A DNA stretch of 64,000 nucleotides from Dictyostelium discoideum (taxonomy: Eukaryota). The DNA is taken from assembly GCA_000004695.1 (NCBI GenBank), contig CM000152.2:5376001-5440000 (forward strand), read 5' to 3'. Each line of letters starts with the position of its first letter. Within the stretch, counting starts at the first letter, position 1. Under the pieces are notes generated by a model that ran no database searches, was not told where the DNA came from, and was given only the letters and a program-made list of their open reading frames with translations. Shown here piece by piece: positions 9,904-36,620 of this stretch. Position numbers and translations under genes: made by a program.

Positions 9904-12900
9904 TTAACCAATAAGGTTTTTAATAAATTCAAAAATGTGATTATTATGATTATCTTTAGCATTATTTAAAATAATTTGATAATCAAGATTTGAAAGAAAT
10001 CCTGCCATTGAATTAGACTTTTTTAATAATAAATTTTGATGATTATTGTATAAATGTTGAAAAATATTTATTCTCCCAAATGAAGATGCTTTTTTTAATA
10101 TTTCAATTAGGTTTTCTTTTAACATATTAAAATCATGAAGATCGGTTGATGGTTCCTTTGATTTTCCAATTATTGGAATACCAATTAATTGTAAAAAAAA
10201 TTCCAATGAAACTACATCACCTAATCTACCAATTTCTTTTGAAACCTTTTTAAATGAATTTGAATTTGGTAATAGATCATCTGGACTTTCTTGATAAAAA
10301 TTGTCACTACCTTTCTCTAGTAGGTTAATTATATTACCAGCTTTATACAATACCACTGGTACACATTGACATCTTTTAACAATACCTTGTAAATCTTGAG
10401 GCCTCTCTAAGAAAATCCAATCAAAAAATTGTTTTAATTGAGATGGCTTTTTAAATAAATCATATGGATAATAGGATACTTTTGTATTATTTATAATGAA
10501 TTTAATATCAGTAAAAACCATTTTAAATTGTTTATTTGTACAATCACCAGATAATGCAACCATTCTTAATACTGATTCATCTTGAATTACATTGTAATTT
10601 TTATGTATATTTTCAACTACATATCTTAACATTTTAATATAATCATAAAATGTTTTAAAGTCAACTCCAAATCCAACTATACTATTTATAAATTTCATTG
10701 GACTTGAGATTGTTACATTTTTCATTATCATCACTGAATTATTATTATTATTATCATCATCATCAGTATGTTGTTGCTCAATCAGTGAAGAATCATTAAT
10801 TTGATATCTTTGCTTTTTCCTATGTATTGCTGCTAATACTAATCTGTCATGTAATTCTAATAATTCGGTATTACAAAACCCAAAGAAATCACAAACTTGA
10901 GTTGGTATATTTGAAGTATAAATATAATCGAAATGATCGAAATGATTGCTAACACAATATCTTAGCATTCTTTCAGATTTAATAAACCTTTGAATTTTAA
11001 GATCATTAAAAACTGAATATTCAACTATAATTTTACTTAAATCCGAGTAATTTTTATCAACAAATTTGATTAAATTTAAATCATCAAAATCTATTAAAAG
11101 GTAAAATAATAGAAACCTATTTTGATTTGAACAATTATTATAAATTTGTTTAATAAAATCGATTTGTTTCTTACTATCATGTGGGCAATGTTTGAATAAT
11201 AAATTTAAATTGCCATTTTTTAATTTAATAATATTCAAAATATACTTTGAAGTAATATTTATATTTTTTACCCAATAATAACTTGATCCATAGATTAATG
11301 ACTTTTTTAAATAAACTTGATTTAAAAAGTTATTTTTACTAATACAAATATTATCTTGATTTTGATAGGTATAAATATAATGAAACATAAAGTTACAATA
11401 CCTTTTTGAATATGAATCTATTGATAAATAAAGTTCCAATAGTAATTTAATATCATTTGATAATTCTTGCCCATTATTTTTATATATTAATTTAATTTTA
11501 GTATTTAATAATTCTTTTGAAAACTTTTTTTTTATATTTTCAATTTCTTCCATTGTATTTATTAATGATTTTGATGTTTTAAAAATAGGTTGTTGATCTT
11601 TATTTTGATGATGTTGATGTTGGTGTTGATGTCTATGTTTATTTCTTTGTTTTAAATCAAATGTTATAATAATAGAACAAGAATTTATTAATTCTTTAAG
11701 AGAATAATTAAAAATTGATTTTAAACCTTTACTTTTTAAATCTTCTTTTAAAAATTTACTATTTTTTAATAATGATTTTAAAAATATTGTATTTCTATTA
11801 ATCTCTGTATCTGATGTATAAATATCTTCTTCATCTTCTTCTTCATCATCATCATTATCATCATCATGATCATCATCTATTTTCTTTCTTTTTTTATAAT
11901 TTGGTTTATCTAATGTTATTTCAAAATTATTATTTAATATTAAATTTGAGATACCTGAATTTACTAATAGTTTTACATTTTCCAAAGTTATTATATTTGA
12001 TTCTAATAAATAATTTATAATTTTTAATGGTGGATTATATAAATTCTCTAATAAATAATTTGTTAATGGTTGTTCTAAACCAAAATCATCAGAGTTTCTA
12101 AAATTTTTAACTTGTGATACAATTAATTTTGTAAATTTTAATGATCTTGTTTTTGCAATTGCTAATAATGAATCATCTAATCCAAAACCAGTGATTTTCA
12201 ATTGTTCTATTAATACTATCAATGGTTCAATACATTTCTCATTTATTGATTCATTAATTAATTCTGAGATTTTAAATTCTTTTTCAATTTGTTTATAATA
12301 GTTTTTAAATAATTGTTGATAAAATAAAATAATTTCATTATGATTCTCTTTTGATGAACCATTGAAAAATTTAAATAGAAATTTAAAATATTTTATTTTA
12401 AAATTTTCTTCTCTTTTCATAACAATCTCTCCATTTGATCTATGATCTGAAAAAAGAATTAGTTCATTTCTTTTTATTTTATATTTTAATAATTCAAAAT
12501 AACCAAATTCAATCATCCATGAAAAATGAATTATATCTTTATATTTAAAAATGGAAATTCCATAAATTTCATTACTTGGTCTACAATTAGAAATTTTTGA
12601 GAATATCTCTCTAAAAAGATATTTATCTTTAAAAACTCTCCAAAATAATTTTTCTACTTTTTCTTTTACCTTTATTGGTAAATTACAATAACTTTTTTTT
12701 CTTGTATCATTTTGTCTTTCTTTTTCTTTATTAGTTTTAAAATCATTTATAAAATTTTTTATTCTTTCTAAACATTTGATTTTTGATGTATGTTTCCCAG
12801 GTTTTATACCAAAATTATTTAAAACAATTATTAATTCTTTTTTATTTTTTTTTTTTAACTCTTCTAAATTAATTTCATTTATAATTTTTTTTTTTTCTTT

Positions 12901-33866: not shown

Positions 33867-36620
33867 ATGAAAGATGATTTATTCTTTTCAGTATATAGAG
33901 ATATTAATATTAATAAATTAATATGGGGATTTGTTCAATCAGAATATAAAACATTAAATGATAAATTTAATTACTATGAAATTATAGACGCAAATTTAAT
34001 GGCAAGAAAGAAATGTTATCATGGATTATTAAGATATAAAGTAAAAAATGGTGATTTATTATCATTCAATATTGATGGTAGATTATCATTTAATGATATT
34101 TTTAATAATTTTAAAGATAGTAGTAGTAGTAGTTGTAGTAGTAGTAATAATAATAATGAAGAAACAAAAGAAGAAATGGAAGAGAAAGATGAAAAACAAA
34201 GTGAAAATTATAAATTTTATTTAAATTTGTTTGAAAATTATTCAAATTATTTTTTAACAGATATAAATGAAATATTAAGTTCAATAATTAAATGTAGTTG
34301 TATTATTGCATTCAAGGTTTTAGTTAATGAGTATGATTTAGAAGGTGATTGTAAACATTTAAAATCATTATATTTACAATCAATTAAAGAAGGTTCAACT
34401 GAAATTTCAGACTATTTTTTAAAAAATTTTAAATTGGAATTGAATGAAAATGATTATAAATCAATTTGGAATTTTTTATTAACCAACAACAGTGGTAGTA
34501 GTGACAGTAGTAGTAGTATTAGTAGTAATAATAGTAAATCAATGATTAATAAATCAATTCAGTATTTATCAAAATTAAATCAACTACCAACTCCAAATTT
34601 AATTCAATCAGTTCAACATATTATTGATTTTAATATTATTGATTCGAAATTTAATATAACATTTCAATTCTTATTAGATACATGCTATTCAATTTCTACA
34701 TTATCAACTGCAACAACAACAAATTTATTAAAAGATAATTTTAAATTTAATGAATTTGTTGGATTACAAAATAAAGAGATAGTGATATTAAGTAAAATTG
34801 AATTGGATGAAATTTCAAAAGTTTTAAAAGAAAGGGAATTATTATTGAAATCACCAATTAATTATGAAAGTGAAATTGAAGAAGAGAATGAAATTTTTAG
34901 AAAATTAGTTGGTATGTCAATAATATTTACATCATCATCAAATGAAAATTCAATTATTAATTTACTATTTTATAATGTAAAGTATGATAATTTACATTTA
35001 TCATTGATTGAATGTGGTAGTAGTGGTAGTGGTGGTGGTGGTAGTGATAGTATTAAAATCAATGAATATTATCCAATTAATAATGATTATACTATATCCA
35101 AAATAATTGATTGTGGTGATCATTTTTTTAATCAAATTTCAACAAGATTCTTTAAAACTAAATTATTATCAATGTTTAATAAAAACTCAATTAAATATCA
35201 ATCAATTAAAGATAGTTTTATAAATTCAATAATTGAATATCAAAAACAAAAACAAAAACAACAACAACAAAACATTGATCCATCAAATCTTTTAAATTTA
35301 TTAGAATTGGTAATTAAATCAAATGACTACATATTCATTAATGATTTCATTAATAAATTAGACCAAAATGAAATTAATTTACCTGATTTACCTTCAAATT
35401 ATTATAGATTTATTGATGTTTCATCATTACCACCAGTATCTTCAAATATTCCCTCGTCTTCTTCTTCTTCTTCCTCCTCCTCCTCCTCCTGTTCTTTTAA
35501 TAATGAAGAACCAATTAAAATATTTGATATTATTTATAAAAGATTTAAATCAAATTTCAATTTAAATTATTTTTTAAGAATACCATATATTAAAGATGTT
35601 GAAACATTTAATAATCAACAACAGCAACAACAACAACAACAAGTTGTTGATAATAGATATTCAGTATTGTTGTATCATTTAAAGAATAGTTATAAAAGTG
35701 ATTATTATCAATACATTAATAATCAATTTCAAATGGATAAAGAGTTTTTATATTGTGATTTCATCTTTGATAATTATGATGATTTTAGTTCACATTTAGA
35801 AACAATTTGGAATTCAGAGAATAGTTATTATAATATTGAACAACAACAACAACAAATTACAAATAATACAAAAGATTGTAAATTTAAATTAAAAAATTTC
35901 ATTACTTTATTTGAAAAAATTATTTTACCAAGCATTAAAAATAATAATAATAATAACAATAATAGCATATTCAAATTCACACCATTAGGATGTAAATTTT
36001 CACTTGAATGGATTTTAAAAAATCATCCAAAACTAATTGAAAATCAATCATTGGTAATTGATAATAATTTATATGGATATTATTATTATTGTAGAGGTTT
36101 TGAAACATTAAAAAATCAATTTATTAATAATAACAATAATAATAATCAAAAATCAATAATTTCAAAATTATTATTATCAAATCCATTAGAATTAATTATT
36201 AAACGTTGTGATTTACCTTGTTTAGAATTTATACTTGAAAATTTGAATAATAATAATAATAATAATAATAATAATAATAATAATAATAATAATAATAATA
36301 ATAATAATAATAATAATAGTAATAATAATCAAATTCAACAACATGATATTGAAAGAATAATGTTATTAATTTCAAGATTTAATCGTGTTGATGTTTTATC
36401 ATTTATTTTCACTTATTTCCCAAAATTATTAAATCAAGAAACAAAAACATATTTATTCACTCAATCAGTTTTAAATTTTGGTTCACTCGATACTATAGAA
36501 TATTTATTTCAAATCATTGGTTTTAGACCCAATCCATCCTCATTTAATCATTTACATCCTAAGGGTGAATTTAGAATACCACTCACTTATTATGAATTAC
36601 TTTATAATAACTGTTGGTAA
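33867..36620 (+). CDS. Member 3 of the uncharacterised 'LFW/FSVYRD' family (917 aa)
   Basis: MKDDLFFSVYRDININKLIWGFV matches the LFWxVFRDK N-terminal block of the two minus-strand paralogs. C-terminal ISRFNRVDVLSFIFTYFP matches RYGRLNIFQYLYFNYP. Poly-N/poly-S low-complexity inserts. Confidence 0.65.
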   Translation: MKDDLFFSVYRDININKLIWGFVQSEYKTLNDKFNYYEIIDANLMARKKCYHGLLRYKVKNGDLLSFNIDGRLSFNDIFNNFKDSSSSSCSSSNNNNEETKEEMEEKDEKQSENYKFYLNLFENYSNYFLTDINEILSSIIKCSCIIAFKVLVNEYDLEGDCKHLKSLYLQSIKEGSTEISDYFLKNFKLELNENDYKSIWNFLLTNNSGSSDSSSSISSNNSKSMINKSIQYLSKLNQLPTPNLIQSVQHIIDFNIIDSKFNITFQFLLDTCYSISTLSTATTTNLLKDNFKFNEFVGLQNKEIVILSKIELDEISKVLKERELLLKSPINYESEIEEENEIFRKLVGMSIIFTSSSNENSIINLLFYNVKYDNLHLSLIECGSSGSGGGGSDSIKINEYYPINNDYTISKIIDCGDHFFNQISTRFFKTKLLSMFNKNSIKYQSIKDSFINSIIEYQKQKQKQQQQNIDPSNLLNLLELVIKSNDYIFINDFINKLDQNEINLPDLPSNYYRFIDVSSLPPVSSNIPSSSSSSSSSSSSCSFNNEEPIKIFDIIYKRFKSNFNLNYFLRIPYIKDVETFNNQQQQQQQQQVVDNRYSVLLYHLKNSYKSDYYQYINNQFQMDKEFLYCDFIFDNYDDFSSHLETIWNSENSYYNIEQQQQQITNNTKDCKFKLKNFITLFEKIILPSIKNNNNNNNNSIFKFTPLGCKFSLEWILKNHPKLIENQSLVIDNNLYGYYYYCRGFETLKNQFINNNNNNNQKSIISKLLLSNPLELIIKRCDLPCLEFILENLNNNNNNNNNNNNNNNNNNNNNNNNSNNNQIQQHDIERIMLLISRFNRVDVLSFIFTYFPKLLNQETKTYLFTQSVLNFGSLDTIEYLFQIIGFRPNPSSFNHLHPKGEFRIPLTYYELLYNNCW

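Follow-up and report, generated by a model that had tools for sequence, protein, structure and literature searches.

What are the three long open reading frames (ORFs) that lie together in a 64,000-nucleotide stretch of the Dictyostelium discoideum genome (contig CM000152.2, positions 5,376,001 to 5,440,000; hereafter the window)? A first-pass annotation, made from the sequence alone, described them as a local cluster of paralogs encoding an uncharacterized cytosolic protein family of about 1,000 amino acids (aa). We call them genes A, B, and C. The best overall explanation, to which we give about an even chance, is that they encode large, soluble, all-alpha, non-enzymatic scaffolds found in dictyostelids and possibly tethered to nucleic acid. 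The ORFs (1011, 1001, and 917 aa) are present exactly at the following coordinates:

9904..12939, minus strand: gene A, a complete single-exon family member of 1011 aa
13429..16434, minus strand: gene B as the first-pass annotation read it, an ORF of 1001 aa that is a paralog of A over its whole length
33867..36620, plus strand: gene C, 917 aa, highly divergent and without the HeH motif described below; a family profile built without C gives it 41 bits

BLASTP aligns A and B over their full length, with 26% identity across ~1040 columns (E=3e-42). The match survives masking of low-complexity sequence with SEG (E ~3e-33), so the similarity is not the Asn/Lys composition artifact that the first-pass annotation had itself allowed for. 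Each of the motif blocks named there is literally present in both proteins: KLFWRVFKDK in A and RLFWSVFRDK in B, FSWM..RNELILF and IKWM..RNETLLF, LFKHC, FDWIF..KRCQ and IDWIF..KRCK, and FGRINIFQHLY and YGRLNIFQYLY. More generally, all of the co-linear internal and C-terminal family blocks (LF.HC, DDLELI, MLDYC, DWI..RC, and GRLNIFQHLY) occur in A and B. Comparison with the orthologous locus in GCA_054859385.1, an assembly labeled D. discoideum, gives ratios of nonsynonymous to synonymous divergence (dN/dS) of 0.18 for A and 0.26 for B and of 0.09-0.15 for neighboring genes. A and B are under purifying selection, constrained yet evolving about twice as fast as their neighbors. A is 94% identical to KAM9959538.1 (D. 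discoideum, 1030 aa), which has the same single-exon model. We rejected the idea that this 94% identity to the comparison isolate reflects unusually fast evolution of A, since dS is ~0.08 across the whole locus (in every gene tested; window 1..23500) and A and B exceed their neighbors in dN/dS only about twofold.

Could the similarity nonetheless be a by-product of AT-rich, Asn/Lys/Ile-rich composition, or could these be decaying, non-functional ORFs? The proteins do contain 10-15% Asn and ~10% each of Ile, Leu, and Lys, and low-complexity candidates swamped our word-index searches. However, the similarity outlasts SEG masking, the observed scores are never reached by shuffled sequences, and the conserved blocks draw on W, F, C, H, D, and G, not on N or K. 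Further, intact ORFs of 917-1011 codons would not last by chance at 20% GC, dN/dS is 0.18-0.26 at a dS of 0.08, and homologs are conserved in four dictyostelid species. This explanation is effectively refuted, and we assign it next to no probability.

Gene C is a harder case. The first-pass annotation held that collinear blocks are common to all three genes, which is literally true of A and B; in C the blocks are degenerate (DLFFSVYRDI, ANLM..NGDLLSF, LEWIL, and FNRVDVLSFIF), and FKHC is absent. Profile methods nevertheless align them in order. A profile of A and B aligns the first ~135 residues of C (E=6.5e-5), an alignment of eight family members matches C by hhalign with 95% probability (E=3e-8; family 95-289 with C 2-191), and BLASTP against P0003, a D. 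purpureum member, gives 36% identity over 132 aa (E=3e-9). A HMMER family profile from which C was left out places C 3-872 in a single co-linear alignment of 41 bits, in the order FIN.II, LL.L.I..D....I, I..D.IYK.F, DC..F, IFK, EWIL, D...LE, RF.R.....F..F..LL. Two parts of the protein can be distinguished:

33870..34439, plus strand: C residues 2-191, the LFW module followed by the FY.NLF.NYSNYF helical domain; confidently homologous, with a shuffle z of ~6.3 against both A and B
35766..36521, plus strand: C residues 634-885, a marginal co-linear match to the C-terminal third of the family (DC..F, IFK, EWIL, CDLPCLEFIL, ISRFNRVDVLSFIF, and GSLDTIEYLF)

Two results count against full membership of C: pairwise BLASTP finds no significant match to A or B (E 0.5-0.8; the short weak matches are co-linear with A and B), and the middle ~400 aa have no detectable similarity when taken alone (C 200-600, -14.9 bits). 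Both would be expected if C shared only the ~190-aa N-terminal domain through domain shuffling, the rest being unrelated. It would also fit shuffling that only the N-terminal hhalign alignment reaches high probability, that this module is known in other architectures, such as with ankyrin arrays, and that the C termini of A and C are indistinguishable from shuffles (z=0.4). The same test against B gives z=6.7, however, so that its outcome is mixed, and a single alignment spans C and keeps the family blocks in their order. Taken by itself, C 600-917 has a score of 4.5 bits (E=4e-4), about 6 standard deviations above 120 shuffles, which reach at most -8.7, and the second-best hhalign alignment is a C-terminal one at the co-linear place (P=0.006). 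C 200-917 scores -4.2 bits, and no shuffled or reversed control comes within 45 bits of it (at most -49.8). C is also similar in length to A and B, with its two end modules at the same terminal places. We therefore consider shuffling improbable. Judged by these profile scores, homology with the family is certain for the N-terminal domain (C 1-200 alone, 50.5 bits) and probable for the C-terminal third, and C is a highly divergent family member.

The local cluster of three paralogs is thus borne out, A and B by direct BLASTP comparison and C through profiles, with no other family member among the 517 ORFs of the window. A, B, and C go back to local duplication and then diverged deeply. The family architecture runs from a SAP-like helix-extension-helix (HeH) motif through an LFW module of ~70 aa and a helical body of ~600-700 aa to a weakly ankyrin-like pair of hairpins at the C terminus. 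The LFW modules of A and B are the following:

12445..12666, minus strand: LFW module of A, residues 92-165 (LFWKVF...WM..N...LL..K)
16126..16347, minus strand: LFW module of B, residues 30-103, scored at 105 bits by profile A6

Across 13 sequences, the module follows the pattern LFWKVF(R/K)N..L...I ... Y..I..I.WM..N...LL..K, in which F14, I27, M57, and K69 are invariant and L13 and W56 nearly so. Under profile A6, built without C, A and B reach 102-105 bits; C reaches 18.6 bits (E=4e-5) and carries L in place of W56. The module is common to three ankyrin-repeat proteins (P0008, P0012, and an ORF on the metagenome contig JACCDY010020584.1), with hhalign probabilities of 93-97%. In P0012 (DFA_08598), Pfam detects Ank_2 at 9e-10, and in the contig protein, Ank_4 at 2e-17. 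The latter has AA..G at the WM..N positions, as in the ankyrin helix. On the strength of these alignments, the ~70-aa module serves as a cap that can be reused on ankyrin arrays. The Cavenderia ankyrin protein (P0012) shares this N-terminal module only and not the architecture of the whole family.

The metagenome contig is 38.9 kb long, 36% GC, densely coding, and apparently intron-less, and it looks like giant virus or protist DNA. The capped ankyrin ORF lies at 3995..5572, and its neighbors include two MYND-finger proteins and two paralogous proteins of ~400 aa, one with weak leucine-rich-repeat matches. A scan of viral contigs for the N-terminal module returned no confirmed relative.

The LFW helix (LFWKVF.N..L...I) might alternatively be an F-box-like element, in which case the proteins would be substrate adaptors of cullin-type ubiquitin ligases. 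F-box-like proteins with leucine-rich repeats are in fact encoded next door to the capped ankyrin ORF on JACCDY010020584.1. The F-box pattern, LP.EIL..IF..L, only loosely resembles the LFW motif, however; no F-box Pfam model (PF00646 and relatives) matches any of ten N-terminal modules at E values up to 10, and a profile search of PDB sequences was without result. We regard the F-box reading as very unlikely.

At the other end of the proteins, the family C-terminal block consists of AS.YGRLNIFQHLY and a second hairpin, and is weakly ankyrin-like. In A it is the following:

9907..10107, minus strand: C-terminal block of A, residues 945-1011 (ASSFGRINIFQHLY...), a weakly ankyrin-like helix pair conserved across the family

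Residues 922-945 of B match Pfam Ank_5 below threshold (15.6 bits, E=0.022; cut-off 27). A custom ankyrin hidden Markov model matches the C-terminal blocks of B, P0002, P0003, and P0007 (four of seven members, 1.2-6.7 bits) and leaves A's own block unmatched; on shuffled sequences it gives a mean of 0.0 matches and at most one. Are the proteins, then, ankyrin-repeat proteins throughout, a subfamily of extremely degenerate, generic protein-protein interaction arrays? The N-terminal module caps genuine ankyrin arrays, with WM..N exchanged for AA..G, the C-terminal block gives the weak matches just described, some helix pairs in the AlphaFold2 model are spaced 31-36 residues apart, and, by eye only, LLI.TDDLELIK recalls the ankyrin pattern AA..G.LE.VK.L. 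Yet A, B, C, and the full-length homologs all stay below the Pfam Ank thresholds, the custom model finds no repeat in the ~700-aa body, and by hhalign the family aligns with the ankyrin parts of P0012 and P0008 at no better than P=0.05-0.3. Whole-length ankyrin ancestry is in our estimation unlikely.

The ~600-700-aa body contains a few conserved hydrophobic blocks (LFKHC, LLI.TDDLELI, MLDYC, and DWI...RC), and the AlphaFold2 models are all-alpha. In six full-length members, 22 positions are invariant: 17 are I, L, F, W, Y, or M, one is G, and four are polar (E96, K154, D620, and D849). No H, C, or S is invariant among these members, nor is there a conserved catalytic-type residue set, a pattern that fits a structural scaffold and not an enzyme. 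We found no transmembrane segment, in agreement with the first-pass annotation, which had seen neither a transmembrane segment nor a catalytic motif. A non-catalytic helical role as scaffold or adaptor can be inferred for A, B, and C from these features, and the helical-repeat-like body would offer protein-binding surfaces.

Whether such scaffolds might be tethered to nucleic acid depends on the HeH motif, which spans ~50 aa ahead of the core in A and in homologs P0002, P0004, P0006, and P0007, 40-140 aa upstream of the LFW module. Copies in the window, including those in ORF U, a large ORF upstream of B, are as follows:

12712..12879, minus strand: HeH motif of A, residues 21-76; E=4e-10 with a profile built from external members only
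16336..16503, minus strand: degenerate HeH motif of B, which aligns with the family HeH and is missed by the external-member-only profile
20228..20383, minus strand: HeH motif of U, residues 566-617; E=4e-9 and 31 bits with the external-member-only profile
18071..18226, minus strand: possible second HeH-like motif of U, residues 1285-1336; seen by eye and in alignment A4, not independently detected, and tentative

Searched against the 517 ORFs of the window, the external-member-only profile finds exactly two places, A 22-75 and U 566-617. Both U stretches are embedded in long low-complexity sequence. In the AlphaFold2 model of A, the HeH region forms a helix (33-42), a loop, and a second helix (53-77), with predicted local distance difference test (pLDDT) scores of 68-80. 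Homolog P0007 scores 22.0 bits against Pfam SAP (cut-off 23.9) and 22.2 bits against SAP_new25, and the best PDB matches of the HeH profile are the N-terminal HeH domains of Rho factor (E=0.026-1.1). The motif hints at a nuclear or nucleic-acid association rather than the cytosolic location of the first-pass annotation. In the members that retain it, the HeH motif would tether the protein to DNA, RNA, or chromatin, and these members would then be nuclear. Its distribution within the locus is uneven: present in A, degenerate in B, represented by an extra copy in U, and absent from C.

Several observations weigh against tethered helical scaffolds as a description of the whole family. No member reaches the Pfam SAP (PF02037) threshold of 23.9 bits, the best being P0007, and Pfam SAP gives no match at all in A, B, or U themselves; the assignment is thus sub-threshold, and we keep the term SAP-like for this reason. 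C has no HeH motif, and a nucleic-acid tether therefore cannot be the common function of the family. Finally, both AlphaFold2 models are of low confidence (pLDDT 58-60; predicted template modeling score, 0.38-0.49), which makes the helical-repeat fold only a coarse prediction.

A more specific scenario, which we find doubtful, is that dictyostelids invented the family by joining an ankyrin-type N-terminal cap to a SAP-like HeH motif and a novel ~700-aa body, giving scaffolds tethered to chromatin or the nuclear envelope; the cap also occurs on the metagenomic contig, whose source may be a giant virus or another protist. U and B together would then be a multi-HeH version of ~2,900 aa with long poly-Asn spacers.

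The relation of B to U bears on the true extent of gene B. Upstream of B on the same strand are the following:

16435..17949, minus strand: Asn-rich open frame of 505 codons in the reading frame of B, lacking any stop, ATG, GTG, or TTG and containing (AAT)n-type arrays; a probable coding linker
17927..22078, minus strand: ORF U (1383 aa), rich in Asn and Gln and interspersed with short non-repetitive islands; it probably forms the 5' portion of gene B
17934..17938, minus strand: AGAAG in the window and AGAG in GCA_054859385.1, a one-base (A) difference in the pairwise DNA alignment

The 505-codon stretch shows coding-like NNT periodicity, and its counterpart in GCA_054859385.1 is poly-Asn, continuous with B. 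The ATG at 16434 falls inside the family HeH alignment; with an intact motif in B, it could not be the true start. B's open frame begins 20 nucleotides before the stop of U. At the junction, GCA_054859385.1 reads ATTAGAGTTTAT and the window reads ATTAGAAGTTTAT. The extra A puts U and B in different frames in the window; without it, U runs into the poly-Asn frame of B. The islands of U are 97-98.5% identical in the other assembly, where the NCBI model joins the C-terminal part of U to B in a 2050-aa product. We found no convincing canonical intron bridging the two frames. An intron joining U to B was rejected in favor of the single-base difference, the available GT..AG pairs being non-consensus and of low AT content.

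Taken together, the reading frames and alignments suggest a single gene, 13429..22078 on the minus strand, that includes U and encodes ~2,900 aa, of which B is probably the C-terminal third, with the extra A most parsimoniously an error or a polymorphism. Two considerations speak against this fusion: it hinges on taking a one-base difference between two assemblies as error or polymorphism, and GCA_054859385.1 has frame slips of its own, located in pure (AAT)n runs that read through without a break in the window. The first-pass size of ~1,000 aa thus suits A (1011 aa) and C (917 aa) and probably not B. The likely consequence is a gene-model correction, in which B and the 1383-aa ORF U form one gene of ~2,900 aa split by a single-base frame difference.

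How far does the family extend beyond the window? With the A+B profile (E<=1e-3), 1.84e9 cluster representatives searched exhaustively by HMMER yielded 12 proteins: one fragment of A, six homologs, full-length or partial, in D. discoideum, D. citrinum, and D. purpureum, four proteins with the N-terminal module only, and one leucine-rich-repeat protein. The relatives are all labeled "hypothetical." The leucine-rich-repeat protein, P0005, was dismissed as a spurious, repeat-driven match. Word-index protein searches with full-length B, the 8-member alignment, and a 13-member alignment stripped of low complexity gave only the 274-aa A fragment among the matches listed, the 8000 candidates to which they extended evidently being compositionally similar sequences. 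D. discoideum has at least five family genes, at least two of which lie elsewhere in the genome as singletons, and there are more in D. citrinum and D. purpureum. The locus of the D. purpureum member P0003 has no synteny with that of C, its neighbors being different. The three genes of the window are thus a local cluster within a dispersed family; the local expansion described in the first-pass annotation stands for the three genes, while the family as a whole is not purely local.

The family is also uncharacterized, as first described, and none of its blocks matches a characterized Pfam domain. Pfam searches with the full proteins, HeH segments, N-terminal modules, and every alignment member found no consistent family, and none at threshold in any full-length member. 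Isolated weak matches (DUF6022 in B, START_2, Baculo_LEF5, and others) were dismissed, as they do not recur across members. Neither B nor profiles A2 and A5 retrieved a relative from the PDB sequences, fold matches included none that was significant, and a literature search on the family or DDB_G0268326 yielded nothing relevant. By the distribution of detectable homologs, this is a dictyostelid-restricted, lineage-specific orphan family, ordinary in kind.

The importance of these results is modest: an orphan family not covered by Pfam now has an explicit architecture and membership. To the earlier description they add the modular architecture, the link to the ankyrin N-terminal cap, the SAP-like motif, purifying selection, the taxonomic restriction, and the probable fusion of U and B. 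Dictyostelium has many such lineage-specific families, and this one gives no sign of an unusual mechanism. Should the HeH motif truly bind nucleic acid, these proteins would be nuclear scaffolds specific to the lineage, in an organism open to genetic work.

The surroundings of the three genes are typical of Dictyostelium, with a window GC content of ~20% and genes for PP2C, SNF2-related, PhoPQ-related, and fatty-acid hydroxylase proteins among Asn/Gln-rich ORFs. The region 1..23500 differs from GCA_054859385.1 at ~5-10% of nucleotides. Usually quoted within-species diversity is much lower, and one of the two, the window or GCA_054859385.1, may represent a divergent lineage. The PP2C ORF and the next two ORFs, which are without Pfam matches (1643..4519, 5150..7087, and 7230..7925, plus strand; 1834 aa in total), are probably exons of one PP2C-containing gene, because the annotation of GCA_054859385.1 models this region as a single gene of 1833 aa (15226..21445 of its locus). 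Directly downstream of the A ortholog, that locus has two small tandem genes with ML / E1_DerP2_DerF2 lipid-binding domains (13592..14929), and the sequence downstream of A in the window (~8944..9714, minus strand) aligns with the first of them. Immediately 5' of C, the sequence is AT-rich and promoter-like. A small ORF directly upstream of C and divergently transcribed (32801..33244, minus strand) has a Cys/His-rich end that resembles a MYND-type zinc finger by look and is probably one exon of a larger gene. Farther along, a 766-aa ORF (54864..57164, plus strand) is made up almost wholly of poly-Gln, poly-Asn, Thr-Gln, and Ser-rich tracts, has no Pfam match, and accounts for a GC skew of -0.59 at 54-56 kb.

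Among known systems, generic alpha-solenoid scaffolds (HEAT, ARM, PPR, TPR, and NOT1-type) match the low-confidence query models only with scores in the non-specific range and have no sequence relationship to the family. With SAP (PF02037), SAP_new25, and the Rho N-terminal domain, the family shares a motif of ~35-50 aa predicted as helix, extended loop, and helix, of the SAP-like pattern L..L..K...EL....K.LG(I/L)......K.E(L/I)...I..(F/Y). These matches are near threshold, but no member passes the curated Pfam threshold, and DNA or RNA binding by the family is putative. The capped ankyrin proteins (Cavenderia fasciculata DFA_08598 [F4Q392, P0012], EukProt P0008, and the 525-aa ORF on JACCDY010020584.1) resemble the family over the first ~70 aa, LF[WY]K[VI]F.N..L...I ... 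WM/AA..N/G...LL..K. Whereas A, B, and C continue with ~700 aa that Ank models do not recognize, those proteins continue with ankyrin repeats that pass the Pfam threshold.

The named dictyostelid members are DDB_G0268326 (Q55GD3), KAM9958792.1, KAM9962589.1, and KAM9959538.1 in D. discoideum, KAN0014727.1 and KAN0026286.1 in D. citrinum, and DICPUDRAFT_76980 (F0ZF89) in D. purpureum; they have no descriptive name, Pfam family, or literature record. Their lengths range from 847 to 1358 aa, and identity, direct orthologs aside, is only 25-35%. Compared with them, C lacks the HeH motif and has the internal blocks only in degenerate form, whereas A and B follow the same order as these members, from HeH and the LFW module through FY..LF.NY, LF.HC, DDLELI, MLDYC, and DWI..RC to GRLNIFQHLY.

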